Source: Escherichia coli (lineage in GTDB: Bacteria > Pseudomonadota > Gammaproteobacteria > Enterobacterales > Enterobacteriaceae). From it: DNA of 64,000 nt. Made by a program: the position numbers and the translations under genes. The stretch lies in assembly GCF_024298765.1 (NCBI RefSeq), contig NZ_CP101210.1; one strand, 5' to 3'. The notes under the pieces were generated by a model. The model saw only the letters and a list, made by a program, of their open reading frames with translations. It did no database searches and was not told the DNA's origin. This document shows, piece after piece, positions 13,354-63,826 of the stretch; the stretch's first letter is position 1, and the number at the start of each line of letters is the position of its first letter.

Positions 13354-14358
<1,005 letters not shown>

Positions 14359-14591
14359 TTATTTTGTAGTCTAGCCTTCTGGCCCTGTTACGCAACATCT
14401 CATCACCCCATTACCCTGAAATGATTAATAAAATTCTGTCTAAATTGAATACAAAAAGCAAAATGCTTTTCCATATACAAACCGTGTGAAGTGTTAAATA
14501 GCGTCTATCATTATCAGAATTATCTGATCATATGACGTGGCTTTTTTGCGATCGGATAGCAACAAAAATTGATAAAAATAACGGGATCTCA

Positions 14592-15824
14592 ATGATTACG
14601 CACAACTTCAATACCCTGGACTTACTCACCAGTCCTGTCTGGATCGTTTCGCCCTTTGAGGAACAGTTAATTTATGCCAACAGCGCGGCGCGACTGTTGA
14701 TGCAAGACCTCACGTTTAGTCAGCTACGAACCGGTCCCTATTCCGTCTCCTCACAAAAAGAACTGCCGAAATACCTCTCCGATCTGCAAAACCAACACGA
14801 TATTATCGAAATCCTCACCGTTCAGCGCAATGAAGAGGAAACAGCATTGAGCTGTCGGCTTGTTTTGCGAAAGCTGACAGAAGCAGAACCGGTGATTATT
14901 TTCGAAGGTATCGAAGCACCGGCAACGCTGGGTTTAAAAGCCAGTCGCTCGGCAAATTATCAGCGCAAAAAACAAGGTTTTTATGCGCGCTTTTTTCTGA
15001 CTAACTCTGCACCAATGTTGTTGATTGACCCCTCACGAGATGGCCAAATCGTCGATGCTAACCTCGCCGCGCTCAATTTCTATGGCTATAACCATGAAAC
15101 GATGTGCCAGAAACATACTTGGGAAATAAATATGCTCGGGCGACGCGTCATGCCTATCATGCATGAAATTTCGCATTTACCCGGTGGCCATAAGCCTTTG
15201 AATTTTGTTCATAAACTGGCGGATGGTTCGACTCGTCATGTGCAGACCTATGCCGGTCCGATTGAAATTTATGGCGACAAGCTCATGTTATGTATTGTGC
15301 ATGATATTACTGAGCAAAAACGGCTGGAGGAGCAGCTGGAACATGCTGCCCACCATGACGCGATGACCGGATTACTGAATCGGCGACAGTTTTATCACAT
15401 TACCGAGCCAGGCCAAATGCAGCACCTCGCCATCGCTCAGGATTACAGCTTATTGCTCATCGACACCGATCGTTTTAAACACATTAACGATCTCTATGGG
15501 CATTCTAAAGGTGATGAGGTGTTATGCGCCCTCGCCCGCACCCTCGAAAGTTGCGCTCGCAAAGGCGATTTGGTGTTTCGTTGGGGAGGCGAAGAGTTTG
15601 TCTTATTGCTACCAAGAACCCCACTGGATACCGCGCTTTCGCTGGCTGAAACTATCCGCGTAAGCGTGGCAAAAGTGAGTATTTCGGGCTTACCACGCTT
15701 TACCGTCAGCATTGGTGTGGCGCATCACGAAGGAAATGAAAGCATCGATGAACTGTTTAAACGCGTTGATGATGCTTTGTATCGGGCGAAAAATGATGGA
15801 CGCAACCGCGTGCTGGCGGCATAA
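14592..15824 (+). CDS. dgcM: Diguanylate cyclase DgcM (PAS-PAS-GGDEF)
   Basis: ORF 14532..15824; start preferred at MITHNFNTLDLL (410 aa); GGDEF active site RWGGEEF present. Confidence 0.93.
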   Translation: MITHNFNTLDLLTSPVWIVSPFEEQLIYANSAARLLMQDLTFSQLRTGPYSVSSQKELPKYLSDLQNQHDIIEILTVQRNEEETALSCRLVLRKLTEAEPVIIFEGIEAPATLGLKASRSANYQRKKQGFYARFFLTNSAPMLLIDPSRDGQIVDANLAALNFYGYNHETMCQKHTWEINMLGRRVMPIMHEISHLPGGHKPLNFVHKLADGSTRHVQTYAGPIEIYGDKLMLCIVHDITEQKRLEEQLEHAAHHDAMTGLLNRRQFYHITEPGQMQHLAIAQDYSLLLIDTDRFKHINDLYGHSKGDEVLCALARTLESCARKGDLVFRWGGEEFVLLLPRTPLDTALSLAETIRVSVAKVSISGLPRFTVSIGVAHHEGNESIDELFKRVDDALYRAKNDGRNRVLAA

Positions 15825-37403: not shown

Positions 37404-38402
37404 ATGTCCCCTACTATTTATGATATTGCCAGGGTTGCAGGCGTATCAAAATCCACCGTATCACGCGTGCTGAATAAGCAAACCAATATCTCCCCGGAAG
37501 CGCGCGAAAAAGTGTTACGGGCCATTGAAGAATTACAGTATCAACCAAACAAGCTGGCACGCGCGCTGACCTCTTCGGGTTTTGATGCCATTATGGTGAT
37601 TTCTACCCGTTCGACCAAAACTACGGCGGGTAATCCGTTTTTCTCGGAAGTTTTACATGCCATCACCGCCAAAGCTGAAGAAGAAGGTTTCGACGTGATA
37701 TTGCAGACGTCGCACAACCTGGCAGAAGACTTACAAAAATGCGAAAGCAAAATTAAGCAGAAAATGATTAAAGGCATTATTATGCTAAGTTCGCCAGCGG
37801 ATGAGTCATTTTTTGCCCAACTCGATAAATATGATATTCCGGTGGTGGTAATTGGCAAAGTTGAAGGTCAATATGCCCATGTTTATTCTGTCGATACCGA
37901 TAATTTTGGCGACAGCATTGCGTTGACCGATGCGTTAATTGAAAGTGGGCATCAAAATATTGCCTGCCTGCATGCTCCGCTTGATGTCCATGTCTCGGTT
38001 GACCGCGTTAATGGCTATAAGCAAAGTCTGGCTGCGCATAATATTGCAGTGCGTGATGAATGGATTGTTGACGGCGGTTATACCCATGAAACAGCCTTGC
38101 AAGCCGCACGGCAATTATTAAGCCAGTCGCCGTTGCCAGAAGCCGTATTTGCCACTGACAGCCTGAAATTAATGAGCATTTATCGTGCGGCAGCAGAGAA
38201 AAATATTGCTATTCCGCAGCAGTTAGCGGTGGTGGGCTATAGCAATGAAACGCTGTCATTTATTTTAACGCCTGCACCAGGCGGCATCGATGTTCCGACG
38301 CAGGAGTTAGGTCAACAAAGCTGCGAGTTATTATTCCAGCTAATTGCCGGAAAACCGTCACCACAAAATATTACCGTTGCTACGCATATGTCGTTGAAAT
38401 AA
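37404..38402 (+). CDS. ycjW: LacI-family transcriptional repressor YcjW
   Basis: 332-aa ORF; N-terminal LacI HTH ([21 protein letters not shown]). Confidence 0.93.
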
Positions 38403-38452: not shown

Positions 38453-39358
38453 TCAGAACGAGTAATTCACCCCAACACCCGCATAATGGAATTTATCGCT
38501 GTCGCCTTCGTCGTGATCCTGCCACTCAAACGCGTATTCCAGCGAAACGGAAAGACCATTCTGGAAATCATAACCGTAAAATAACCCCACACGGTTAAAA
38601 TCATGGCCTTCACGTTCAATATCATCCTGCCAGTCCCAGTTACTCCAGCGATCCAGCCCAATGCGCGTATACGGCGTCACCGAGTGGTTGCCGAGCGTCA
38701 GCGGCAAATAGGCGCGAATTTCTTGCGTGGAAAACTCACCGTTATTGCGGCTATCATCCATATTGAAACCGCGCTCGAGATAATAGTTCACTCGCAAGGC
38801 AACCGTTTCGTTGAAGGTATATTGCAGACCCGTTTCCGTTTCGACACGGGTATCAGCATAACCGGTCGTATTCAGATCGTTGGCAAATTTATACATCGAC
38901 AGCCAACCGTTGAAACGTAAATCGTCAGTCAGTTTCACATCCCAGTCTGGCGCAATTTTCCAGCGCTGCATATTCGCCGTGTCTTTACCCGGTTCATCAA
39001 CGTAGTGATAACCATAATTACGGAAACCACCAGTCAGACCGAAACTGAAATCATCGCTTTCGAGGAACTGATAATGTACCTCCAGCTCCGGGCGATCAAA
39101 CCACGTTCCACGTTTACCCGCGCTATAATCTACCGGCCCTTCCTGATAATAGGCCAGAGAAATTCTCCACGGCCCGTTGGCGGCATTAAAATAGACAGAA
39201 GGCTCCGCCAGCCCATCCATATCTTCGCCATAACCCTCGACGTTTTCTATTTCGTACATCGCGCCGATATTAAAGTGCCAGTCGTTCTTTTCCTCGGCCT
39301 GTGCGCAGGCCATTCCCGCACACATCACCAGTGCGGTACAGGGTAATAATTTTTTCAT
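38453..39358 (-). CDS. ompG: Outer membrane porin OmpG
   Basis: 301-aa ORF with signal peptide and beta-barrel pattern ending in F. Confidence 0.94.
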   Translation of the reverse strand: MKKLLPCTALVMCAGMACAQAEEKNDWHFNIGAMYEIENVEGYGEDMDGLAEPSVYFNAANGPWRISLAYYQEGPVDYSAGKRGTWFDRPELEVHYQFLESDDFSFGLTGGFRNYGYHYVDEPGKDTANMQRWKIAPDWDVKLTDDLRFNGWLSMYKFANDLNTTGYADTRVETETGLQYTFNETVALRVNYYLERGFNMDDSRNNGEFSTQEIRAYLPLTLGNHSVTPYTRIGLDRWSNWDWQDDIEREGHDFNRVGLFYGYDFQNGLSVSLEYAFEWQDHDEGDSDKFHYAGVGVNYSF

Positions 39359-39402: not shown

Positions 39403-40485
39403 TTAGCGAATTGCTATTTCCGTTTCTGCATCAAAGAAATGACATTTAGTCATATCAAAATGAATAGTGATATTTTCTCCTGCATGATAATCATTTAACG
39501 CACCAGCACGGACCACCAGTTCGTGCCCCCCAACCGTGGTGTAGAGCATAAATTCAGCACCGGTTAATTCTGCCACGCTAATTTTGGCGGAAATGTTATT
39601 TTCCTCTTGCGCTTGCGGCTGAATATCTTCCGGGCGTATTCCCATCACAATGGGCTTATGCAAACTTTCCTGTGTTTTCAGAACCGCTAATTTCTCCTCG
39701 GGAATGGTTAATTTAAGCGTTTCCGTAACGAATTTATCGCCATCAATCGTGCCGCGAATAAAATTCATTGCAGGTGATCCTATAAATCCGGCAACAAACA
39801 TATTCGCGGGTTGGTTATAAACCGTTTTCGGCGCACCTACTTGCTGAACAATCCCATCCTTCATAATCACAATCCGCGTCGCCATGGTCATCGCTTCGGT
39901 CTGATCGTGGGTCACGTAGATCATGGTGGTGTTCAGTTTCTGATGCAGCTTGCTGATCTCTGCGCGCATTTGCACGCGCAGCTTGGCATCCAGGTTAGAG
40001 AGCGGCTCATCCATTAAAAACACGCCCGCTTCGCGCACAATCGCCCGCCCAAGCGCCACTCGCTGACGTTGCCCGCCGGAAAGCGCGCCCGGCTTGCGTT
40101 TCAGGTACTCACGCAGGCCGAGAATTTGCGCCGCCCAGTTCACCCGCTCATCAATCACCTCTCTGGCGATTTTTTGCATCTTCAGGCCAAACGCCATGTT
40201 GTCGTAGACCGTCATATGCGGATACAGCGCGTAGTTCTGGAACACCATCGCGATATTGCGTGCTTTGGCTGGAACGTCATTCATTCGTTTGCCGTCGATC
40301 AACAGATCACCGCCGCTGATCTCCTCAAGCCCGGCAATCATACGCAGGGTGGTCGATTTACCGCAGCCCGACGGGCCGACAAACACGATGAACTCTTTAT
40401 CGGCAATCTCCAGGCTGAAGTCCTTCACCACATGCACCTGGTTATCGTAGATCTTTTGAATATGTTGTAACGAAAGCTGTGCCAT
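39403..40485 (-). CDS. ycjV: ABC transporter ATP-binding protein YcjV (MalK-like), intact
   Basis: 360-aa ORF; Walker A GPSGCGKST, signature LSGGQRQR, Walker B FLMDEPLSNLD. Confidence 0.9.
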   Translation of the reverse strand: MAQLSLQHIQKIYDNQVHVVKDFSLEIADKEFIVFVGPSGCGKSTTLRMIAGLEEISGGDLLIDGKRMNDVPAKARNIAMVFQNYALYPHMTVYDNMAFGLKMQKIAREVIDERVNWAAQILGLREYLKRKPGALSGGQRQRVALGRAIVREAGVFLMDEPLSNLDAKLRVQMRAEISKLHQKLNTTMIYVTHDQTEAMTMATRIVIMKDGIVQQVGAPKTVYNQPANMFVAGFIGSPAMNFIRGTIDGDKFVTETLKLTIPEEKLAVLKTQESLHKPIVMGIRPEDIQPQAQEENNISAKISVAELTGAEFMLYTTVGGHELVVRAGALNDYHAGENITIHFDMTKCHFFDAETEIAIR

Positions 40486-40498
40486 GTTGATTCCTTTG

Positions 40499-41158
40499 CT
40501 ATACGTTTTGCCAGAAGGCCGATAACCGCGGCCAGGTCAGGGAGTCCGTTGAGGGCAACAATAATTGCGCCCCGGTTAAGCCCGCGCCGATCCCCACCGA
40601 GCGCATACCGCTGGCGTTAATGGCGTCAATGCCCGCCTGCGCATCTTCAATGCCGATACATGCCTGCGGCGGCACGCCCAGTCCGGCACAGGCGGCGAGA
40701 AAGATTTCCGGGTCCGGTTTCGAGTTTTTAAGTTGGGAAGCGTCCGCGCAGAAGGTGAAAAACTCGCGCAGCTCCAGCGCTGCTAAAATCGTCGGCGCAT
40801 TCAGGGAGACAGAAGCCAGCCCTATAGGGATCTGCTGTGCACGGAGATCTGCCAGCAAATTGCGAATGCCGGGCAGCACAGCATTAACCGTCAGTTCGCG
40901 CAGTGAGTGGACGTAGAGCAGATTTTTGCGATACGCCAGTTGAGCCCTCTCCTGCGGGTTAAAGTCGCCCTCTTTGCCCCCGTGTTGCAGAATGCGCCGC
41001 AGAGACTCATCGCGGCTGATCCCTTTTAGGGATTCGTTAAACTGCGCATCAATGCTGATGCCAATTTCAGCGGCAATCTGCTGCCACGCCTTGAAATGCA
41101 GATGCGCGGTATCGGTGATTACACCATCCAGATCGAAAATTACCCCTTGCAGTTTCAT
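40499..41158 (-). CDS. ycjU: Beta-phosphoglucomutase (HAD superfamily)
   Basis: 219-aa ORF; HAD motif [11 protein letters not shown]. Confidence 0.93.
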
Positions 41159-43422
41159 TCATCCTCCTGATGCGTGGTAGCGGTCCCATTGAAGGGCAAA
41201 ATAAAATCACCCAAACAGAAAACAGATTCTTCAGCCACAGATATAAGCTGCCCGTTCAAACGCAGTGAAACGGGCGCAGAAGTTCGAATCGCAATACGCT
41301 GCGCGTCGAGAGTGACCTGTAATTCGCAGCCCTGCCAGAACAGAGGGAAAGACAACTGTTGCCACTGCTCAGGTAACGCTGGATTGAGATGCAATTCACC
41401 GTTACGCACGCTCACCCCGGCAAAACCCTGAATCGCCCCCAGCCAAATAGCGCCAGTTGCGGCTGCGTGGATACCGTCATCACAGCTATGCGGATCAGCA
41501 CCAAGATCGATTTCAGTCCCCTCCCGCCAGAACTGATAACTTTGCGCCAACAGGCCACAGCGTGCGGCAACAATGCCGTGGATCGCTTTACTCAGTGAAG
41601 AGTCGTGAATGGTGCGCGGTTCATAAAATTGCAGATTGGCAAGACACGATGCCGCTGAGTACTGCTCCGGCAGCATGTAATTGAGCATCACCACATCAGC
41701 TTGTTTGAGGATCTGCATCTCGTTCACTTCTGCGCGTGAATAATCCAGCAGAATGGTTTGCTTCCCCGCCGCCGCTTTGTATTTCGCCAGATTAATCGCT
41801 GGTTTCGCCATAAACGAATCATCCTGCGGCAAAACGCCGTCAGGCTGAATTTCTGGCAGCCGCAGTTCTTTGAGGAATATTTCGGCACGATGAATAAACG
41901 CGTCGTCGCTACAACCAAACTGACGAGCGATATTCAGCGCCTGCTGGACGTTGTAATACGCCATATAGCTGGTGAAGGCGTTATTATTGACATGTTCGGT
42001 ATATTCGTCTGGCCCAATAACATCATGAATTTCCAGACGGTCGTTAACCCTCACCGTGCGGCTAATCCAGAACTTTGCAGTTTCCAGAAGTAGCGCCATG
42101 CCTTCATGAGCAATGAAACTTTCATCCCCCGTGGTCTGCCAGTATTGAACAACCGCCCAGGCGATATCGGCGACCAGATGATGTTCCGCCTGCGCCGAGG
42201 CCACTTTTTGCCGCAGCCCGGTGCGAATGTTAATGGCGGCAAATTCCGGCGTCTCTTCTTCGCCGCTGCGCGCGCTTTCCCACGGAAATAGCGCGCCCTG
42301 CCAGCCGTTGCGTCGCGCTTTCTCCTGCGCGCCTGGCAAGTTGTGCCAGCGATAACGCAGTAAACTTCGGGCAACCGTCGGATCGCTAAACAGATGAAAC
42401 GGCAGTAAAAATACTTCCGTATCCCAGAAAACGTGGCCTTTGTAGCCTTCCCCGGTCAAACCTTTTGCCGCAATACTGCTGCGCTCGTCGTGAGCAGGCG
42501 TCATGATGCGTAGGTGATAAAGCGCATAATCTAACGCTTGCTGATCGTGCGCATCGCCACCGTTTACCGTGATACGACGTTTCTGCCACCATTGACGCCA
42601 GTTTTCTGTGGATGCTGCAAGAAGTTGGTCGTAACTCTGCTGTACATACATTTCAAGCTGACGAAGCGATGCACTGCCCCACTCGTCTAAAGCGACGAGT
42701 CTGTCGTCCCGCCAGTCGATCCACACCCGTTTTTGCAGCGTCAGCGTTTCGCCTGCGTGAAGTTGCGCACTGGTATGTTGCAGCAAGCGGCGCTCTTTGG
42801 CGGTATAGCATTGCTGCACATCACCGCTCACCTTACAGCAACAGCTGATGGCCACATCACTGCGCCCATCCTGGGTGGTGTAGATCCCCTGCATCAGATG
42901 CTGACCAAATACCCGCAACTGGGTTTCGTCGAGATGTTGGCGACCGTGGTTGGTTTGCGTGGCGTCAATGCCTGTTGAAATCAGCACTAACGCGTCGGCG
43001 TCCAGTGGCGTAATAGTGATTTCCAGCGCAATGAGCGGCAGTTGGTCTGCCGAAACAAAGCGACGGCTGACGATGGTGTAACGCGCGCCGTTACTGGTAC
43101 ACCAGACAACGTTGCGGCGTAATTCGCCACTGGCAAAGTCAAGCTCACGCTGCCAGGCTTCGCGGGATAACGAGAAAACCTCACCATTTATGGCAATCTC
43201 CATCCCCACGACATCAGGCAGGTTCACCAGTTCGTTGATTTCACCCTTACCCGCTCGATGATACAGCCCCGCCAGATACATGCCGCGCGTCTGGCGCGTG
43301 TAATCTTCTTCATGGCTGGCGCGAAGCCCAAGATAGCCGTTCCCCTGCGCCATCAGTGAAGCATACTTGTTCAGGGTATGCTGGCTGAAATGGGGTTCTG
43401 ATAACGTTACTGGCCTGGTCAT
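41155..43422 (-). CDS. ycjT: Kojibiose phosphorylase (GH65 family)
   Basis: 755-aa ORF; stop overlaps the ycjU start (ATGA). Confidence 0.93.
41173..41189 (-). promoter_or_regulatory. Copy 1 of a 17-nt repeat (gene-sense ATGGGACCGCTACCACG), 17-33 nt upstream of the ycjU start inside the ycjT 3' end
   Basis: Exact 17-mer also at 51101..51117 upstream of ycjM; imperfect dyad (TGG.A..CG..T.CCA); candidate LacI-type (YcjW) operator. Confidence 0.45.
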
Positions 43423-44474
43423 AATTCAACACGCGTCCCTGTTTCTGCGGATTGATACAACGCCGCCACCAGTTGCTGGATGATGTACCCCTGCTCGGCG
43501 TCGGCTATCATCACGGGCTTGCCCTGTACGTGATTGATAAAGGCTTCCATGCTGCGCAAATGGCGGTTGTCGTCTGCCATTTCCCGTTGCATCAGCGTCA
43601 TTAATTCACCGTTGTTATCGGTGTAGAGATGTGCCGGAAACAGCGTCGCACCGGCTTTATCACCACAAAAGCTGACATTCATAATCGACTGTTCGCGGAT
43701 GTTGAGTGCAAATGACGTTTCCAGCCACAGAATGCCGCCGTTATGAAATTCAATGGTGCCAAACAGCGAATCTTCGACGCTGTAAGTTGCCGGATACCAC
43801 TCGCCAAATTGACCACAGCTCTTTTGTGTGCCGATCTTTTGAAAGCTATGCGCGGTCACGCTTTTCACCGCCGGAAAGCCCAGTACATACATCGCCGCAT
43901 CCAGCATATGAATGCCGATGTCAATAAGCGGCCCGCCGCCCTGCAATTCTTTATTGGTAAAAACGCCCCAGCCGGGAACGCCGCAGCGACGCAGGGCGCG
44001 GGCGGTGGTAACGTAAATCTCTCCCAAAACGCCGTTGGTCACCTGTTCACGCAGCTGTTGCGTATCGAGTGCAAAACGATGGTGAAAGTCGTAGGCCAGC
44101 ACCTTGCCCTGTTTGCGCGCGGTATCGCACATTTCCCGCGCCTGTTCTGGCGTCATGGCGGGCGGTTTTTCGCACATCACATGGCAGCCCGCTTCCAGCG
44201 CCATCAGGGTATGTTCGTAATGAAAACGGTTAGGTGAGCAGACGCTAACCACATCAGGTTTCACCGCCAGCAGCATGGCCTGCGGATCGTCCCACACGGA
44301 TGCATTCCCGTATTTTTCTGCCAGCGCCTGCGCCTGGGAAAGGCGGCTGTCACAGACAGCCACCAGTTCCAGATCGTTGCGGGTGCAGTAGTACGAAGCA
44401 TGAACTTTATCCGCCACCTGGCCCGCGCCTATTATCGCGACCCGCAGCGGAGAGCTTGTCATTGCACTTTTCAC
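43419..44474 (-). CDS. ycjS: Gfo/Idh/MocA-family sugar dehydrogenase (glucoside 3-dehydrogenase)
   Basis: 351-aa ORF; N-terminal Rossmann motif IIGAGQVA. Confidence 0.9.
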   Translation of the reverse strand: MKSAMTSSPLRVAIIGAGQVADKVHASYYCTRNDLELVAVCDSRLSQAQALAEKYGNASVWDDPQAMLLAVKPDVVSVCSPNRFHYEHTLMALEAGCHVMCEKPPAMTPEQAREMCDTARKQGKVLAYDFHHRFALDTQQLREQVTNGVLGEIYVTTARALRRCGVPGWGVFTNKELQGGGPLIDIGIHMLDAAMYVLGFPAVKSVTAHSFQKIGTQKSCGQFGEWYPATYSVEDSLFGTIEFHNGGILWLETSFALNIREQSIMNVSFCGDKAGATLFPAHLYTDNNGELMTLMQREMADDNRHLRSMEAFINHVQGKPVMIADAEQGYIIQQLVAALYQSAETGTRVEL

Positions 44475-44483
44475 AAAGACCTC

Positions 44484-45281
44484 TTAGCAGGTACGCAACC
44501 AGGCCAAAGAATCACGGTACGCCTGGGCTGGATCTTCCGCCCGGATGCGCCCTTCGTACACCACATAGCCCTGATAGTTATCCGCGCGCAGCTGTTCAAA
44601 CAGCGCGTGGAAATCCAGGGTGCCGCTGCCCGGCTGGTAGCGATGGTTATCGGCAATATGCACATGACCGAGCAGGTCGCGGTTGTCATGCAGCGCCTGC
44701 GCCAGGTTATCTTCTTCGATATTCATGTGATAGAAATCGCCGATAATCTGTACATGTTTAAGATCGTTTTCGACGATGTAACGGCGGGCATCGGCGAGGG
44801 TGTTGATCATGTGATCCTGATAACGGTTTAACGGTTCGAGGTACACCACGGTTCCGGTACATGCGGCCACCTTTTCCAGTACGCGCAGGGAATCACTCAC
44901 CATTTTGCGGTCGCCGTCCAGGCTACGCGGCGAGGTCATCGGCGGTAAGCGGAAGGTAAACATGCCCCATGCAGCCGGAACGACGATACCTTTACCGCCC
45001 ACTTCTGCCAGAGCTTCAAGAATGCGTTCGATCTGCTTTAAGCCATTAAGTCGACGCTCCTCGATAAAGTCGCCAATCCAACCGTCATAGCCACCGCAGG
45101 CGGTGGTCACCGGTAAACCGGTTTCTTTGATTGCTGCTTTGACTTCTTCGAGATTGTTGACCAGCAGTTTGCCGTCAATCTCAAAACCATCGAAACCCAT
45201 CTCTTTGATATAACGAAATTTCTCCAGAATGTTTTCCGGAAAGAACGCCTGATTCTGTGTGCCGATTTTCATTTTTTTCAT
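44484..45281 (-). CDS. ycjR: Sugar epimerase/isomerase (xylose isomerase-like TIM barrel)
   Basis: 265-aa ORF; real start may be the internal MKIGTQNQ (262 aa). Confidence 0.9.
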   Translation of the reverse strand: MKKMKIGTQNQAFFPENILEKFRYIKEMGFDGFEIDGKLLVNNLEEVKAAIKETGLPVTTACGGYDGWIGDFIEERRLNGLKQIERILEALAEVGGKGIVVPAAWGMFTFRLPPMTSPRSLDGDRKMVSDSLRVLEKVAACTGTVVYLEPLNRYQDHMINTLADARRYIVENDLKHVQIIGDFYHMNIEEDNLAQALHDNRDLLGHVHIADNHRYQPGSGTLDFHALFEQLRADNYQGYVVYEGRIRAEDPAQAYRDSLAWLRTC

Positions 45282-45290
45282 TCCTTTGAA

Positions 45291-46343
45291 TTAAAACGTA
45301 ACGCCCATTTTGATGCTCTGTTCCGGATGCTGGTCGACATACTGCATGTAGCTTTCCGGGCTGTTAGCAAAGGTCACCACCGGGTCGATTAAATCTTCAC
45401 AATTGAGATAACCGTTCATCAGCAGTTCCCAGCAGGTTTCTTCAATACGCTTGCGACTCCAGCGCGGATAATCCGGGTTCGGCTCGCTGCACGCACGGGA
45501 GAAAACAATTTTGGCGTTGTTGAAATGCGCTTCGCGTCCGAGGTTAAAACCTTCGGCAAACGGTTTGGCAAACGCGACATACGAGATGGTGCCGCCATAT
45601 GCCAGACCTCGTAGCGCCGATTGCAGCGCGTCGGCATAGCCGCTGGTTTCGATAATCACATCGGCACCCTGCTTGCCGGTTAGCGTTTTGATCTCTTTGC
45701 CTACGTCAGTGCCAATGGGGTTAAGGCAGAAATCCGCGCCATGGCGACGGGCAATCTCACAGCGATGGGCGATAGGATCGACGCCAATCACCACCGACGC
45801 GCCAGCACGTTTAGCCAGTTGAATGGCAATTTGACCGATCGCGCCAAGCCCTACCACCACCACAAAATCGCCCACGCGCACATTGGCATCGCGCACGCCG
45901 CTCATGGCAAACTGCGCCGGGTCGTAGCAGACAGCGTTTTTCCACGAACTGCCTTGCGGCATTTTGCGCAGCTTGTAGTTATTCACTGCGTTAATGATGA
46001 CCGTCTCGGAGAGCGGGCCGTAGCCGCATACGCTGTCGCCCACCGCGTAGTCGGTAACGTCGCTGCCGCACTCGATAATGTCGCCAACCACCATGTTGCC
46101 AAGCTGGAATTTGCCAAACTCAATGCCGCGCGGCGCATCTGCCGGACGCGGGGTGAACATCTGCCATTCGCCGTTAAAGTCTTCATCGATAAACGGACTG
46201 GCAGCGCGGAAATCGACCACTTCCGTCCCGTGCTTCGGTGCGCCGAAGCGCACGCGGATCTTCACTTCATTGGCTAAAATCGCCCGATCTTCATACTCAA
46301 CCAGCGCAGCAACGCGCGGTGCTGTGGCTACTAACTTTTTCAT
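45291..46343 (-). CDS. ycjQ: Zinc-dependent MDR-family alcohol/sugar dehydrogenase
   Basis: 350-aa ORF; Rossmann motif GLGAIGQ. Confidence 0.9.
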   Translation of the reverse strand: MKKLVATAPRVAALVEYEDRAILANEVKIRVRFGAPKHGTEVVDFRAASPFIDEDFNGEWQMFTPRPADAPRGIEFGKFQLGNMVVGDIIECGSDVTDYAVGDSVCGYGPLSETVIINAVNNYKLRKMPQGSSWKNAVCYDPAQFAMSGVRDANVRVGDFVVVVGLGAIGQIAIQLAKRAGASVVIGVDPIAHRCEIARRHGADFCLNPIGTDVGKEIKTLTGKQGADVIIETSGYADALQSALRGLAYGGTISYVAFAKPFAEGFNLGREAHFNNAKIVFSRACSEPNPDYPRWSRKRIEETCWELLMNGYLNCEDLIDPVVTFANSPESYMQYVDQHPEQSIKMGVTF

Positions 46344-46373
46344 GTAAAACTCCTTGTAAAGAAACTCGCCGCT

Positions 46374-47216
46374 TTAGCCCTTCACGCCACCGGCGGTCAA
46401 ACCACTCTTAATAAAACGTTCCGAAAGCGCGTACATAATCACCACCGGCAATGCGGTCACCAGCGAGGCCGCCATCATCCGTCCCCAGATGTAATCAGGC
46501 GTACTGAACAGCGCGTTCAGTCCCACAGGTAAGGTGAAATTGCTGGCGCTGGAGAGGAAAATCGACGCAAACAGATAGTCGTTCCACGCCACCATAAAGC
46601 AGTAGACGAACACGGATATCAGCCCGGACATCGCCAGGGGCACGGTGATACGGAAGATGATTTGCAGACGGTTGAGGCCATCCATCATCGCCGCTTCTTC
46701 GATCTCATCAGGGATGGTGTCGAAGTAGCTTTTCAGCATAAACACGGCGGTGGGCAGGGTTTGCGTCACCATGGTAATGATCAGCGCCATCTCGGTGTCG
46801 TAAATACCAAGCGCGGTGATGATTTTGAACAGCGGCACCACCAGCAAAATGCCAGAGAACATGTACACCGTGTAAAAGCTGGCGTTGATGGTCATCCGGC
46901 CTTTAAAGCGCAGGCGGGAAAGCGCGTAAGCTCCGAGAATGCCGAGAAATACCGCCACCACGGATGAAACCACCGACACCACCATGCTGTTACGGAAGTA
47001 GTCGACAAACGGGAAAATCATCGGGTTAAAAATGTCGACATAATGCTCCAGCGTCCACTGTTGCGGCAGCAGCGTAGGATGCAGCGAGATCGCCTCTTTT
47101 GCGCTCTTGAACGAGGTCATCAGCATCACAAAAAACGGAAACAGCGTGATGATGAGAAACAGCGCCAGCCCGCAGTAAAAACCGATGCGACTGAGTGTGC
47201 GTTTATTTGTTGCCAT
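46374..47216 (-). CDS. ycjP: ABC transporter permease (MalG-like)
   Basis: 280-aa polytopic membrane ORF; overlaps ycjO 3' end. Confidence 0.9.
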   Translation of the reverse strand: MATNKRTLSRIGFYCGLALFLIITLFPFFVMLMTSFKSAKEAISLHPTLLPQQWTLEHYVDIFNPMIFPFVDYFRNSMVVSVVSSVVAVFLGILGAYALSRLRFKGRMTINASFYTVYMFSGILLVVPLFKIITALGIYDTEMALIITMVTQTLPTAVFMLKSYFDTIPDEIEEAAMMDGLNRLQIIFRITVPLAMSGLISVFVYCFMVAWNDYLFASIFLSSASNFTLPVGLNALFSTPDYIWGRMMAASLVTALPVVIMYALSERFIKSGLTAGGVKG

Positions 47217-48084
47217 TGAGGTTCACCCGTTTTCTGGTCAGCAGAATGACAGCGAAAATAATGATGAAGAGCACCACTGAGATCGCCGCCGCTTTCCCTA
47301 AGTCATTAAAGGCAAAGGCGGTTTTGTAGAGATAGACACCGAGAATATCGACCTTGGTCGTCAGCAGATAAACATCCGCGAACATGTAGAACATCCAGAT
47401 GGTGCGCAGGGTCACCACCGTCGCCAGGACCGGCATAATCGCGGGCAGCGTGACGATACGAAACCGTTGCCAGGCATTAGCGCCATCCATCTCTGCCGCT
47501 TCGTACAGCGATTTGTCGATGGTCTGCAAAATCGCCAGAAACGAAATAAAGGCATACGGGAAGTAGCGCCAGATGGCGAACAGCACCACCAGCACAAAGC
47601 TACTGCCCGGATTATCGAACCACAGCGGTGCCTGCTCATAGAGATGCAGAAGATCGACGCCGAGGTAGTTCACAATGCCGTAACCGTTGTTGAACATGTA
47701 TTTCCAGGCGAACACCAGCGAAATAGACGGCGTTACGTAGGAGAGGATCACCAGCGAACGCGCGGTTTTGCGCAGGCGGAACTCGCGGTTGAAAAACATC
47801 GCCACGGCCAGCCCGAGCACGGCGCTGCCCGCCACCACCAGTGTGGTATACCAGACCGTCATCCACAGCGAGTGCCAGAAGCCGGGATCGGAGAGAATAC
47901 GCACGTAGTTGCTCACCCCAACAAACGTTGACTCGATGTTGGGATTAAGCGGCAGACGTAAAAAACTGATTTCGATATTCGACACCATCGGCCACGCCAC
48001 CAGACCGCCCAGCAGTAATAAGCTGGGCGCGAGAAGCAACAGCGCAAAGGGCATATCGGAACGACCTGAAAAAAGCCTGTTCAT
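47203..48084 (-). CDS. ycjO: ABC transporter permease (MalF-like)
   Basis: 293-aa polytopic membrane ORF. Confidence 0.9.
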   Translation of the reverse strand: MNRLFSGRSDMPFALLLLAPSLLLLGGLVAWPMVSNIEISFLRLPLNPNIESTFVGVSNYVRILSDPGFWHSLWMTVWYTTLVVAGSAVLGLAVAMFFNREFRLRKTARSLVILSYVTPSISLVFAWKYMFNNGYGIVNYLGVDLLHLYEQAPLWFDNPGSSFVLVVLFAIWRYFPYAFISFLAILQTIDKSLYEAAEMDGANAWQRFRIVTLPAIMPVLATVVTLRTIWMFYMFADVYLLTTKVDILGVYLYKTAFAFNDLGKAAAISVVLFIIIFAVILLTRKRVNLNGNK

Positions 48085-48104
48085 TGCGGATTCCTGTCCT
48101 GGGT

Positions 48105-49397
48105 TTAGCGCTGTTCAACCAACTCATCCAGCTTTTTCTGGCTCGTTTGCAGCGTGCCAGGGAGGTCGGCTTTACCCACGGTGACGTTATGCACCATGGA
48201 GCTCACCACGCCAGAACCCGTCACATCGCCCATGCGGGTAAAATTTTTATCCCCTACTGCGCCAAAGACCTGAATATTTGGCAGTTCGCTGATTAACTGA
48301 TTTGGCAGCTCACCCAGCGCCTTAATAACGTCGTTGTCTTTCCAGGTGGCGGTAGTGACAACCGCTTTGTTCACCGGCAGCGCCGCGCCTGGCGACATCA
48401 TCACCCAGTCGGCAATGTTGTCTGCCTGCTCCATAAAGGTGACAAATTTTTCAGCCGCTTCCGTCTCTTCGGCCTTTTGCCCGGCGGTAATGGTCAGCGA
48501 GGTCAACATGCCGTAGACCGCAGAGTTTTTCTCGGTGGGTACAACGAAACCAACGTTTTTCGGATCGCCCTCTTTAATCACAGCCGGAAGGATATAGGTG
48601 GAGTAAATCGCCATCGGCGCGGTGCCGTTCATAAAAGCGTCTTTCACTTCCATGATGTCGTTAGAACCCGGCATGGTGTTGGCAGCAAGGTCGCGGTAAT
48701 AGGTCAGCGCCTGCATCATCTCTGGGGTATCAAGGGTGATTTTGCCTTCGGCGTTAAAGACGTTAGCCTGATTGGATAACGCAAACTGGGAGAAAGATTG
48801 TTCCGTCAGCACACTTTCTGCCGTAGGCAGTGCAATGCCATATTTTTTATTCGCCGGGTCATTCAGTTTCTGCGCGACATCCAGCAATTGCTGCCAGTTT
48901 TTCGGCTCCTCCAGCCCGGCTTTTGCCAGCACATCTTTGCGATACCAGATGCCGCCAATCCATGCGCTCACGGGAACACCGGTCCAGGCGCTGCCATCTT
49001 CGGTGCGCACAATACGCAGTACGCCATCGTAGAACGCGCCTTCACCAACGTTGCTGATGACCGTGGCAACCGCTTTACGATCGATAAGCTGCTCTTTGTC
49101 CATAACTTTGGCGTAGTCATGGCTGGTTTCGATCACTTCCGGCAGCGAGCCGCTACGTGACAGGGTTATGACTTTGGTGTTATAGGCATCTTCTTCCACT
49201 GGCACTTGTTTAACGGTGATGCCCGGGTTTTCTTTTTCAAAACGGGCAATCAATTTACTGATAACGGCCTGGCGCTCCTGCTCCACCGAAGAATGCATAA
49301 ATTCGATGGATACATGGGTTTTATTTTCTTCTTTACAGCCTGAAATCAGGGCGCAGGAAACCAGTGCTGATAACAGCACGATTTTTGATTTAATCAT
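48105..49397 (-). CDS. ycjN: Periplasmic sugar-binding protein of the ABC transporter
   Basis: 430-aa ORF with lipoprotein-type signal (LISGC). Confidence 0.9.
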   Translation of the reverse strand: MIKSKIVLLSALVSCALISGCKEENKTHVSIEFMHSSVEQERQAVISKLIARFEKENPGITVKQVPVEEDAYNTKVITLSRSGSLPEVIETSHDYAKVMDKEQLIDRKAVATVISNVGEGAFYDGVLRIVRTEDGSAWTGVPVSAWIGGIWYRKDVLAKAGLEEPKNWQQLLDVAQKLNDPANKKYGIALPTAESVLTEQSFSQFALSNQANVFNAEGKITLDTPEMMQALTYYRDLAANTMPGSNDIMEVKDAFMNGTAPMAIYSTYILPAVIKEGDPKNVGFVVPTEKNSAVYGMLTSLTITAGQKAEETEAAEKFVTFMEQADNIADWVMMSPGAALPVNKAVVTTATWKDNDVIKALGELPNQLISELPNIQVFGAVGDKNFTRMGDVTGSGVVSSMVHNVTVGKADLPGTLQTSQKKLDELVEQR

Positions 49398-49410
49398 GAG
49401 ATGTTCCTTT

Positions 49411-51090
49411 TTATTTAATCCACATAACCTGCCAGGGGCGCAGCGTTATTTCATTACCCAATATATCAACTTCACTAATCAGATCCCGACCATGCAGATC
49501 AGTAATATTTATATGCTGAATATTTTCACTGACATTAAACAATCCTGTCAGACAATTACCATCCGCGTTGCTTCTTTGAATACACATTACGGATGAATTA
49601 ACCGTATCGATGGTAAAATCATTATCCGGATGAAACTCGTTATGGCTGCGACGAAGTGTAATTAAACGCGACAACTGATGATATACCGCATGCCTTAATG
49701 TAGCTTCATCGTTCAGTTCCTGTGTTATCTCTTCACTGTGATATTTTTTACGGTTAATCGCACGGTTATATCCGAGTTTTTCGACACCTGCGTAATCATT
49801 ACGCGAGCCCAGAATACTTTGAATATATATCGCTGGCACACCGGGGAAACTTAACAAAATCGCACGGGCAAGGATAAACCTGGCACAACGTTCTACATCG
49901 CTACTCTCGCGGCGGCTTAACGCATCCATATAGGTGACATTTATTTCATAGGGACTGCGCGTACCGTCGGGATTATTTTTCCAGTTTACTAATGCACCTT
50001 CCTGCTGTAATGCCTCGACCAGCGCTAATATTTCGCTTTCTGGTAACAAGCCACGCAGTGGGTTCAACCCGATGCCATCGTGAGAGGCGAGGAAGTTAAA
50101 CCAGGTGGTGTTGCTGGAAGGTAGTGTCAGGTTTTGCGCCCACGCACAAAGCGCCTCAACGTTCTGTTTTTGCACCGCATGCAGCACCAGCGGCGGCAGC
50201 GAGAACTGGTACACCATATGCGCTTCGTCATCGCCTTCGCCAAAGTAAGCAATGTTGTCTTTATGCGGAACATTGGTCTCGGTAATGATCACTGTACCTG
50301 GTGCTACGTCATCAATAATCGACCATAACAGCTTGATAATCAGATGTGTTTTTTCCAGATGGATGCAGCTTGTTCCTGGCTCTTTCCACATAAAGCCAAC
50401 GGCATCCAGCCGGACATATTCTGCGCCCTTTTCCAGGTAGCACAGCAATACATCCACCATCGCCAGCAACACTTCAGGGCTACGGTAATTGAGGTCAATT
50501 TGATCGTCGCTAAAGGTGGTCCATAAATGGCGCGTGGAATTATCGCGCATCTGGAATGGCGTTAATAACGGTAACGCACGCGGGCGAGTGACGGCGCTGA
50601 GATCGGTTTGCGGGTCAACGGCAATAAAAAAATCTTCAAAACCTGGCTGCTGTTGTAAATAGTTTTTAAACCATTCACTTTTTGCCGACATATGGTTGCA
50701 GACAAAATCAAACATTAAATGACTGCATTCACCGAGTTGCTGAATATCCTGCCACTCCCCCGCTTCACTGGCGACCTGATGATAATCAATTACCGAAAAG
50801 CCATCATCAGATGACCATGGATAAAACGGCAACAAATGAACATGTGAAAAAATGCTTTGAAGCCATTGAGGGTAAAACTGATTAAATGTGGGTAGTGGTT
50901 TTAAATCATTACTGTGAAATTGATCAGCATAGGTAATTAACACGACATCACTTTCATCCCAGTGTTTTTTACGTCGCTGTGTAATTAATCGTTTCGCACT
51001 CTCAAGACGCGTTACAAGTTTCTGTAAATGAGTTGCGGTAAATGTTCCACCGTAGATTTCGTCCAGGTAATCCGTAATTTTCTGTTCCAT
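49411..51090 (-). CDS. ycjM: GH13 sucrose-phosphorylase-like enzyme (glucosylglycerate phosphorylase)
   Basis: ORF 49411..51117; start preferred at MEQKITDYLDEIYGG (559 aa). Confidence 0.92.
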   Translation of the reverse strand: MEQKITDYLDEIYGGTFTATHLQKLVTRLESAKRLITQRRKKHWDESDVVLITYADQFHSNDLKPLPTFNQFYPQWLQSIFSHVHLLPFYPWSSDDGFSVIDYHQVASEAGEWQDIQQLGECSHLMFDFVCNHMSAKSEWFKNYLQQQPGFEDFFIAVDPQTDLSAVTRPRALPLLTPFQMRDNSTRHLWTTFSDDQIDLNYRSPEVLLAMVDVLLCYLEKGAEYVRLDAVGFMWKEPGTSCIHLEKTHLIIKLLWSIIDDVAPGTVIITETNVPHKDNIAYFGEGDDEAHMVYQFSLPPLVLHAVQKQNVEALCAWAQNLTLPSSNTTWFNFLASHDGIGLNPLRGLLPESEILALVEALQQEGALVNWKNNPDGTRSPYEINVTYMDALSRRESSDVERCARFILARAILLSFPGVPAIYIQSILGSRNDYAGVEKLGYNRAINRKKYHSEEITQELNDEATLRHAVYHQLSRLITLRRSHNEFHPDNDFTIDTVNSSVMCIQRSNADGNCLTGLFNVSENIQHINITDLHGRDLISEVDILGNEITLRPWQVMWIK

Positions 51091-51100
51091 GTTGCCTTTC

Positions 51101-51117
51101 CGTGGTAGCGGTCCCAT
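51101..51117 (-). promoter_or_regulatory. Copy 2 of the 17-nt repeat, 11-27 nt upstream of the ycjM start codon
   Basis: See copy 1. Confidence 0.45.
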
Positions 51118-51303
51118 GAAACGAGAGACTACTCCGCAGAAAATAAACTGTCAATTGAGCACAAGGGTTTTAGTCACGCAGGAAATCATTTTTTACCAGG
51201 GAAAAAGCGTATTTGTGAGCTGACGCAAATAATCTATGGGGATGTACATAAGGTGTGACAGAAAAAGTAAACGGCGCATAAGCGCCGCTTAGGGTGGATT
51301 CTT

Positions 51304-54393: not shown

Positions 54394-54474
54394 GCCGGAT
54401 GCGGCGTGAACGCCTTATCCGGCATACATAATCAATACGTTGTTTGCAGGCCTGATAAGCGCAGCGCATCAGAC
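54394..54474. repeat. REP/BIME palindromic units between convergent pspF and puuE
   Basis: tgccggatgcggcgtgaacgccttatccggcatac plus a second unit (gcctgataagcgcagcgcatcag). Confidence 0.8.
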
Positions 54475-63791: not shown

Positions 63792-63826
63792 TGTCCGGAT
63801 AAAGCGTTCACGCCGCATCCGGCTAA
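63792..63826. repeat. REP palindromic unit downstream of ymjA
   Basis: tgtccggataaagcgttcacgccgcatccggcta. Confidence 0.7.

Follow-up and report, generated by a model that had tools for sequence, protein, structure and literature searches.

The lac operon combines an initiation-blocking operator, which overlaps the start of the transcript, with a second operator inside the first structural gene; these operators are imperfect palindromes that retain their asymmetry, and the auxiliary ones (lac O2 and lac O3) act by tetramer-mediated looping over 92–401 bp. The tetramers are formed by the C-terminal segment of LacI. In Firmicutes, dimers of the LacI-family protein CcpA, a global regulator that needs HPr-Ser-P as a corepressor, occupy intragenic cre sites, and cre sites within coding regions act as roadblocks. 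The dimeric LacI-family repressor PurR, according to the account of He and Zalkin (1992) given in PMC3159470, halts elongation at operators that lie within the transcribed coding sequences of purB and purR and are palindromes with a central CG. The purB operator, the only one of its gene, is a few hundred bp away from the promoter. Further, roadblocks formed by LacI work best against a low flux of polymerases (PMC4132739).

The closest described object is the pair of YcjW operators in Escherichia coli K-12 (Luhachack et al. 2019, Nat Commun 10:2868, PMC6599011; Gao et al. 2021, NAR 49:9696, PMC8464067), with which the locus analyzed here shares the core sequence TGGGACCGCTACCA, both positions, the repressor, and the operon. 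The 2019 and 2021 papers already reported the sites, the repressor, and an inducer, and we add no new element to these. Neither paper gives the internal site a mechanism or reports its conservation, and the puzzle is why a second, equally conserved operator should lie 9.9 kb inside an operon.

The ycj locus and its repressor

The window, that is, the whole analyzed stretch of 64,000 nucleotides, comes from a non-K-12 E. coli and differs from the K-12 locus in having an intact ycjV and in that its two operator copies share 17 rather than 15 nt. The operon lies on the minus strand. Its first gene, ycjM (49411..51090), encodes a glucosylglycerate phosphorylase, and a terminator-like hairpin after pspE (51268..51291, minus strand) delimits the ycjM regulatory region on its upstream side. 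Toward the other end, ycjT (41155..43422), which encodes kojibiose phosphorylase, overlaps the start of ycjU (also pgmB; 40499..41158), a beta-phosphoglucomutase gene, in an ATGA. The genes that follow are ycjV (39403–40485), encoding an ABC transporter ATPase of 360 aa, and the porin gene ompG (38453–39358). The repressor gene ycjW (37404..38402, plus strand) is convergent with ompG, and a motif scan found no YcjW motif near its start.

YcjW has 332 aa, comprises a LacI helix-turn-helix (PF00356) and a periplasmic-binding-protein domain (Peripla_BP), and aligns with LacI residues 5–313, with no C-terminal extension. The same gene is annotated as the repressor YcjW in K-12, and ycjW and the cluster are linked in all of the loci compared. 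CcpA and PurR are among its closest solved relatives, with CcpA ranking second after an unnamed LacI-family regulator.

As in lac, one ycj operator (O1) is predicted to overlap the transcript start and to block initiation, a second (O2) lies inside a structural gene, and both are imperfect palindromes with their asymmetry retained; unlike lac O2 and lac O3, however, O1 and O2 are 9.9 kb apart, and YcjW lacks the tetramerization segment. At O2, YcjW resembles CcpA as a LacI-family dimer on an intragenic site, but it is a local repressor that is released by a sugar. Compared with the purB operator, O2 lies much farther downstream (9.9 kb), where two genes meet, and is the second copy of an operator already present near the promoter; moreover, the roadblock demonstrated for PurR is one that we infer for YcjW.

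Two YcjW operators with an identical core

The 17-mer ATGGGACCGCTACCACG occurs exactly twice in the window, at 41173–41189 and 51101–51117, in both cases on the minus (gene-sense) strand, as the first-pass annotation had reported. Tolerating up to three mismatches yielded no additional match in the window (0.12 expected), and two or more matches arose in 0 of 100 shuffles. Exact repeats of this length are no rarity: the window holds seven independent 17-mer pairs, REP elements among them. The significance of ATGGGACCGCTACCACG therefore lies in its placement and conservation, and not in identity alone. The match over all 17 nt is a feature of this E. coli lineage alone, since the K-12 copies share just 15 nt and the internal copy differs by strain (...ACCAAAC in K-12, ...ACCACGT in UPEC 536), and the conserved unit is the 14–15 nt (A)TGGGACCGCTACCA. 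Direct reading of the 14-bp core agrees with its earlier description as an imperfect dyad: 10 of the 14 positions are self-complementary around a central CG at positions 7–8, and the noncomplementary pairs are 4/11 and 6/9.

The copy before ycjM carries the O1 core at 51103–51116 and ends 10 nt before the annotated ATG (51090), which places it 11–27 nt upstream, as had been stated. The copy before ycjU carries the O2 core at 41175–41188, lies within the final codons of ycjT, where it is translated as N-G-T-A-T-T, and ends 14 nt before the ATG (41158); its distance is hence 15–31 nt, which corrects the earlier figure of 17–33 nt. A Shine-Dalgarno sequence follows each copy on its 3' side (GGAAAGG for ycjM, AGGAGG for ycjU), again in agreement with the first-pass annotation, and the spacing between O1 and O2 is 9,928 bp.

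The same annotation had attributed both elements to the adjacently encoded LacI-type repressor, and the published binding data bear this attribution out. The two most enriched YcjW regions in ChIP-seq are those upstream of ycjM and between ycjT and ycjU, which have a 14-bp motif in common (PMC6599011). The 50-bp ycjM gel-shift probe of that study, LL58, matches the window with the central CG of TGGGACCGCTACCA at probe positions 25–26; it was shifted by YcjW, and kojibiose at 0.5–1 mM released the protein. The gel shifts used probes for O1, cyaA, and narP, with no O2 probe in the primer list; the 14-bp core at O2 is identical to that of the shifted O1 probe, and the cyaA site TGGGAACGTTACCA and the narP site TGGTAGCGTTACCA fit the TGGGACCGCTACCA pattern. 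In the ChIP-exo table of Gao et al. (PMC8464067), the signal-to-noise ratio is 1665 at ycjU, the strongest YcjW site, and 840 at ycjM. Upon coordinate conversion, the ycjU peak maps onto O2, while the peak assigned to ycjM is listed ∼105–110 bp downstream of O1, an unexplained offset. A scan of the K-12 cluster found no weaker YcjW motif under ChIP-exo peaks #18 and #19. Moreover, deletion of ycjW derepresses the entire operon (PMC6599011). YcjW is absent from the main text of Ravcheev et al. (2014), and a literature search on the ompG 'cog' deletion returned nothing useful.

The repeated element is thus real and was correctly described, and it is the YcjW binding site already published, which means that it is not new. 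O1 and O2 are YcjW operators, as evidenced by in vivo occupancy of both and by in vitro binding and inducer release for the O1 probe; the possibility, raised at the outset, that YcjW would fail to bind either element did not materialize.

O1 follows a predicted σ70 promoter, PycjM (51126..51154, minus strand), which consists of a −35 element TTGACA (51154–51149), a 17-nt spacer, and a −10 element TAGTCT (51131–51126). The 17-mer begins 8 nt past the −10 element and the O1 core ∼9 nt past it, so that O1 would lie in the 5' leader of ycjM and span ∼+4 to +17 relative to the predicted start. The order TTGACA-17-TAG(T/A)(C/T)T followed by the operator is kept in all of the genera compared, with nearly invariant −35 and −10 elements. 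We scored promoters by a weight-matrix scan with control windows, which replaced a simple consensus scan; the latter found nothing at either site, and even the evident PycjM escaped it, since TAGTCT fits the −10 consensus at only three of six positions. By weight matrix, PycjM has the best promoter score on the sense strand of the operon (11.3 bits), and its median score, also 11.3 bits, was reached by no control window. With its start site predicted from sequence, O1 appears to be a promoter-proximal operator within the −35 to +20 region, and its position just past the −10 element of a conserved σ70 promoter suggests that it blocks initiation. In the absence of inducer, YcjW would sit on both operators, from which kojibiose or a related sugar would release it; at O1, it would keep polymerases from initiating the ycjMNOPQRSTUV-ompG transcript or from escaping the promoter, as happens at lacO1. 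Taken as a whole, an account in which both sites are YcjW operators, with O1 blocking at the promoter and O2 as a putative elongation roadblock, is very probably right.

Conservation of the internal operator

Both operators are retained across the Enterobacteriaceae, which is a comparative result new to this work. A cross-genome motif search, suggested by the first-pass annotation, located O1 in every genus examined and in each Enterobacterales locus with coverage of that region, and it located O2, with at most one mismatch, in 50 of 55 Enterobacterales loci (exact core in 34, a flipped variant in 4, and one mismatch in 12). Across those loci, YcjT identity falls from 96% to 57%. In Firmicutes, a related motif, TGGGAGCGGTACCA, adjoins the ycjW homologs, and arrays of two to five operators occur there at a spacing of 33–55 bp.

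The internal copy is under DNA-level selection that the coding constraint on YcjT does not account for, which is likewise new here. O2 is traversed by the final ∼12 codons of ycjT, which encode a hypervariable C-terminal extension. Within this extension, the G-T-A-T codons have a nucleotide entropy of 0–0.33 bits, as against 0.9–1.9 bits in the neighboring columns; the four-fold degenerate codons within O2 are essentially without synonymous variation, and the O2 window has the seventh lowest entropy among 754 windows along ycjT. Further, the internal operator is intergenic in Atlantibacter, 10 nt past the ycjT stop, and in Buttiauxella it is present as the reverse complement and is translated as G-S-G-T. 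O2 probably occupies what was originally the ycjT-ycjU spacer, with the ycjT reading frame later extended through it. The first-pass annotation had allowed that coding constraint might explain the internal copy and that the ycjM copy might be missing from other strains; instead, the synonymous sites are conserved and the ycjM copy is found in every genus.

The internal operator and ompG are both present in 45 loci, both absent in 3, and discordant in 3. This association is not independent evidence, because all three loci that lack both belong to one genus.

Function of the internal operator

O2 lies in transcribed sequence, 9.9 kb downstream of PycjM and inside ycjT. A YcjW dimer bound there would constitute a roadblock to elongation without a promoter of its own, stopping whatever few polymerases get past O1 or initiate by accident in the preceding 10 kb. 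The PurR sites in purB and purR, and the efficacy of LacI roadblocks against sparse polymerases, make such a role plausible. The genes beyond it, namely ycjU, ycjV, and ompG, which encodes a large open porin, would thereby be gated twice by one signal, and we infer that this tightens their repression. Given that O2 is a YcjW operator, such a roadblock has about an even chance of being its mode of action, an internal promoter is a minority possibility, and other mechanisms make up the remainder. The more specific proposal, that O2 is a dedicated promoterless checkpoint on elongation, selected in at least a dozen enterobacterial genera, and that the invariant G-T-A-T is a translated operator, is put forward tentatively, as one that falls just short of an even chance.

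The main competing explanation is that O2 serves an internal promoter in the 3' end of ycjT, which would drive a separate ycjU-ycjV-ompG transcript under YcjW repression. In its favor, in vivo binding at O2 is at least as strong as at O1, and some Firmicutes transcribe the ycjU homolog separately, beside ycjW. Moreover, deletion of ycjW raised ycjU ∼45-fold and ompG ∼40-fold, compared with ∼22-fold for ycjT, in qRT-PCR with three replicates and differing amplicons (PMC6599011); the two-fold difference between ycjT and ycjU is a small effect, the direction of which fits a roadblock, and an internal promoter fits it equally well. The E. coli sequence also has a TATTTT on the 5' side of the operator, 8 nt from the 17-mer and 9 nt from the TGGG core, a spacing equal to that of TAGTCT at O1. 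This hexamer, however, is part of D-F-I-L-P codons and gives way to TTCTTGC, TTTAGC, and the like in genera with an exact O2; it is accompanied by no acceptable −35 element, and the best combination in E. coli scores 4.0 bits, compared with 11.3 bits for PycjM. Across genera, consensus and weight-matrix scans found no σ70-like signal before O2 above the coding background in any genus, and the median score there, 4.3 bits, is equalled by 35% of random coding positions; σ70 scoring would miss a weak, activator-dependent, or non-σ70 promoter. Entropy along the ycjT alignment revealed no conserved DNA island in the 50 codons upstream of O2, in contrast to PycjM with its nearly invariant −35 and −10 hexamers. 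No entry for a transcript start near ycjU appears in the supplements of Cappable-seq and SMRT-Cappable-seq, as expected of a silent operon. We therefore consider an internal promoter unlikely. The internal control point at ycjU-ycjV that the first-pass annotation had envisaged stands as repressor occupancy, but not as an internal promoter, for which no σ70-like signal rises above background.

Were O2 the elongation checkpoint proposed above, full-length transcripts into ycjV and ompG would need O1 and O2 both to be vacant, since the two are identical in sequence, and the porin and the transporter ATPase would obtain a tighter off-state and a steeper response to inducer than the proximal catabolic genes. 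A natural roadblock at O2 would provide a clean chromosomal case of double gating by a single repressor, and it would help to explain the off-state of ompG under repressing conditions.

The presence of two identical operators in one operon could also point to DNA looping, with a YcjW oligomer bridging O1 and O2 in the manner of lac O1-O2 or gal OE-OI, and the operator arrays of Firmicutes hint at cooperative binding in that lineage. The 9,928 bp between the sites nevertheless exceed the efficient distance of tens to hundreds of bp; YcjW, at 332 aa, is without the C-terminal segment by which LacI (360 aa) tetramerizes, and it has been modelled as a dimer on PurR (Gao et al. 2021, supplementary file 9; PMC8464067). 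Looping is accordingly highly improbable.

Both copies are transcribed and lie 10–14 nt from a start codon, and the ribosome-binding site is within 1–2 nt of the core in many genera, all of which would suit an RNA-level leader motif 5' of the Shine-Dalgarno sequence, through which a protein or small RNA controls the translation of ycjM and ycjU. YcjW, however, demonstrably binds DNA, and one copy is the reverse complement of the other in Buttiauxella and in Enterobacter sp. kpr-6 (locus L040, with a single mismatch in its internal copy), an arrangement that leaves a palindromic site in duplex DNA intact while changing the RNA sequence; an RNA motif is therefore scarcely credible.

Finally, that the repeat is coincidental, as the other exact 17-mer pairs in the window might suggest, or that selection on the YcjT protein sequence alone produced the internal copy, is refuted by YcjW occupancy of both sites in vivo together with the comparative data, namely synonymous conservation inside a hypervariable tail, the position past the stop in Atlantibacter, and the different translation in Buttiauxella, and we give these explanations practically no weight. 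A DNA-binding site here dictates four residues of a protein tail, which is relevant to the annotation and evolutionary analysis of YcjT.

A repeated YcjW operator in the ycj operon

The 17-mer ATGGGACCGCTACCACG has exactly two exact matches in the window, at 41173-41189 and 51101-51117, both on the minus strand (sense for the ycj operon); no other match with three or fewer mismatches occurs in the whole window (0.12 expected). A gap of 10 nt separates the upstream copy from the annotated ycjM ATG (51090), and one of 14 nt separates the internal copy from the ycjU ATG (41158); the internal copy falls within the final codons of ycjT, where it is translated as N-G-T-A-T-T. The exact search recovered both copies at the positions reported in the first-pass annotation, which had rightly placed the internal copy inside the ycjT 3′ end, but at 17-33 nt upstream of ycjU; the actual distance is 15-31 nt. 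A sequence search located the 14-bp core, TGGGACCGCTACCA, at 51103-51116 (O1, the upstream operator core) and at 41175-41188 (O2, the internal core), both on the minus strand. As had been proposed, 10 of its 14 positions are self-complementary, with CG at the centre.

Because the window holds seven independent pairs of exact 17-mer repeats, REP elements among them, 17-nt identity by itself is weak proof. Several of these repeats come from a REP-like inverted pair, GCCGGATGCGGCGTGAACGC (54394-54413 and 63804-63823). Moreover, the full 17-nt identity is specific to the window's E. coli lineage; the sequence 3′ of the internal core is ACCAAAC in K-12 and ACCACGT in UPEC 536. The window's E. coli is distinct from K-12, with an intact ycjV and with YcjM and YcjT 96% identical to the K-12 proteins.

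The element is the published YcjW operator, the same object and already known; its initial assignment to YcjW is supported by (i) published ChIP data and (ii) a ycjM gel shift. Luhachack et al. 2019 (PMC6599011) performed ChIP-seq with FLAG-tagged YcjW, in which the sites ahead of ycjM and at the ycjT-ycjU junction ranked highest. The ycjM gel-shift probe in their supplementary primer table, GAGTAGTCTCTCGTTTCATGGGACCGCTACCACGGAAAGGCAACatgAAAC, matches the window and carries the core's central CG at probe positions 25-26 of 50. This probe was shifted by YcjW and released by kojibiose, not by trehalose or sucrose, and deletion of ycjW raised ycjM, ycjT, ycjU, and ompG mRNA 20- to 60-fold (PMC6599011). 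The weaker published sites at cyaA (TGGGAACGTTACCA) and narP (TGGTAGCGTTACCA) share the operator pattern (PMC6599011). In the ChIP-exo data of Gao et al. 2021 (PMC8464067), the YcjW signal/noise was 1665 at ycjU and 840 at ycjM, and the ycjU peak, after conversion between genome-version coordinates, coincides exactly with the internal core. By contrast, the listed ycjM peak lies past O1, on its downstream side, by ∼105-110 bp (K-12 NC_000913.2 1368320-1368355; ∼ycjM +79 to +114; window ∼50976-51011), and no motif-like sequence was found under it or under the weak third peak (ycjN, +65 to +102). The window's YcjW comprises a LacI helix-turn-helix and a periplasmic-binding-protein domain, and CcpA and PurR are among its closest solved relatives.

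Directly upstream of O1 on the minus strand lies PycjM, the predicted sigma-70 promoter of the operon, with a −35 TTGACA (51154-51149), a 17-nt spacer, and a −10 TAGTCT (51131-51126); the 17-mer begins 8 nt past the latter. Of all sigma-70-like sites on the sense strand of the operon, PycjM scores highest (11.3 bits); the TTGACA-17-TAGTCT-operator layout hardly varies between genera, and the control windows of all loci stayed below the median PycjM-type score. Given this placement, the operator spans ∼+4 to +17 relative to the predicted transcript start, a classical position from which YcjW on O1 would block initiation or promoter escape, much as at lac O1. An ATG opening the upstream 17-mer (51115-51117) is in frame with ycjM, and the ORF list gives a 568-aa ycjM product from 51117, the annotations starting at ATG 51090. 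This earlier ATG, replaced by GTG in other genera, would be leaderless, the predicted transcript start being near 51119.

Conservation of both operators and the YcjT tail

Both operators are deeply conserved, an observation added by the present analysis. We retrieved 79 loci around YcjT homologues, one genome per species; the ycjMNOPQRSTUV-ompG order with convergent ycjW is constant throughout the Enterobacterales loci, and every one covering the region upstream of ycjM has the operator there. At the ycjT-ycjU junction, 55 Enterobacterales loci contain the exact E. coli core (34), TGGGAGCGGTACCA (4), a site with one mismatch (12), or no site (5: three Chimaeribacter loci, Limnobaculum, and Budvicia, with a decayed TGCGAGCAGTGCCA). 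This set includes Escherichia, Citrobacter, Enterobacter, Leclercia, Lelliottia, Raoultella, Salmonella enterica subsp. diarizonae, Trabulsiella, Buttiauxella, Siccibacter, and Atlantibacter, with YcjT identity to the window down to 57%.

ompG and the internal operator are both present in 45 loci, both absent in 3, and discordant in 3, a pattern confounded by phylogeny. The Chimaeribacter loci (L053, L054, and L062) lack both, Budvicia (L045) keeps ompG beside its decayed site, and Limnobaculum (L071) has ∼1.1 kb inserted between ycjT and ycjU. In Escherichia sp. MOD1-EC7003 (L057), each operator has one substitution (2308 and 12235; TGGGATCGCTACCA, TGGGACCGCCACCA) and a frameshift splits ompG (14066-14967), a single case that may reflect relaxed selection. 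The locus titled Chryseobacterium sp. 18061 (L028) has an Enterobacteriaceae-type ycj cluster, laid out almost identically to that of L024 (Citrobacter sp. 18056, a record of the same project), and its assembly is probably mislabelled or contaminated.

The analysis also yielded evidence that the tail of YcjT is constrained by the internal site, not the reverse. In a 40-sequence alignment, the last ∼60 columns are the most variable part of YcjT (nucleotide entropy of 0.9-1.9 bits/site), yet the G-T-A-T codons have entropies of 0, 0.20, 0.33, and 0.06 bits; all four are four-fold degenerate, yet essentially without synonymous variation. Among 754 windows across ycjT, only six have lower entropy than the 15-nt one that covers the operator. 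Since Firmicute and Chimaeribacter YcjT end approximately at the enterobacterial D-F-I-L-P motif, O2 falls in an added C-terminal stretch, the counterpart of what was once an intergenic spacer. The ycjT of Atlantibacter stops 10 nt short of the operator; Buttiauxella has the internal operator inverted and translated as G-S-G-T. Together with the G-T-A-T invariance, these two cases rule out a coding by-product. The Buttiauxella ycjM site (TGGTACCGCTCCCA) is the exact reverse complement of its internal counterpart (TGGGAGCGGTACCA), which argues against an RNA-level motif and fits recognition of double-stranded DNA.

Possible action of the internal site

In our analysis, O2 has about an even chance of acting as an elongation roadblock, the remaining simple mechanism, which would gate ycjU, ycjV, and ompG a second time. 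PurR is described as blocking elongation from operators within the purB and purR coding sequences (PMC3159470), and LacI roadblocks are most effective at low polymerase flux (PMC4132739). Leak from a repressed promoter provides just such a low flux. Its closest likeness is the intragenic PurR-purB operator, although O2 is found at a gene junction 9.9 kb downstream of PycjM and duplicates a promoter-proximal site.

An internal promoter at ycjU, as the first-pass annotation had envisaged, is doubtful and finds no backing in the sequence. We found no promoter upstream of O2 in a consensus scan, and O2 is without a conserved one, a point added here: the median weight-matrix score (4.3 bits) is matched by 35% of random coding positions, and the 50 codons upstream of O2 hold no conserved DNA island. 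The E. coli TATTTT before O2, which is positioned relative to O2 as TAGTCT is to O1, is part of the D-F-I-L-P codons and is not retained in genera with an exact O2. The fold increases upon ycjW deletion (qRT-PCR: ycjT ∼22-fold, ycjU ∼45-fold, and ompG ∼40-fold; PMC6599011) are compatible with double gating and would also suit a weak internal promoter, the difference being too slight and the design not direct enough to discriminate between the two. Tetramerisation of LacI depends on a C-terminal segment. Looping between O2 and O1 is unlikely, given the 9,928 bp that separate them and the absence of that segment from YcjW (332 aa), which was modelled as a dimer (PMC8464067).

Near ompG, ycjV (39403-40485) is intact, with a reading frame of 360 aa, unlike in K-12 MG1655, where the annotation has it as a pseudogene in two parts, ycjV and ymjB. 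Ranking second among the sigma-70-like sites of the operon sense strand, TTGATA-17-TTTGAT (10.3 bits; ∼39430-39458, minus strand) falls at the 3′ end of ycjV. It precedes the ompG ATG by ∼70 nt and, judged by sequence, could be an ompG-proximal promoter.

Operators in Firmicute relatives

The motif is co-conserved with its regulator in Enterobacteria and Firmicutes, which was likewise added by this analysis; regulator and motif appear to have moved together with the cluster between phyla. Bacillaceae and Listeria clusters (L044, L046-L052, L055, L059-L061, L063-L067, L074, L076, and L078) contain 2-5 tandem copies of TGGGAGCGGTACCA or TGGGAGCGATACCA, mostly 33-55 bp apart, in the divergent ycjW-ycjM intergenic region (approximately positions 1800-2200 of the loci, up to ∼3800 in L060); L074 and L076, the two from Listeria, have one copy each. 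No operator copy was found at the ycjT end of the Firmicute loci. Further, in ten of them (L046, L049-L051, L055, L059, L064, L074, L076, and L078), the promoter of the cluster, ahead of the ycjM homologue, has a cre-like palindrome, gtAAGCGCTTtc, in the interval from its TTGACA to its TATAAT, which suggests CcpA catabolite control there in addition to the YcjW-type operators.
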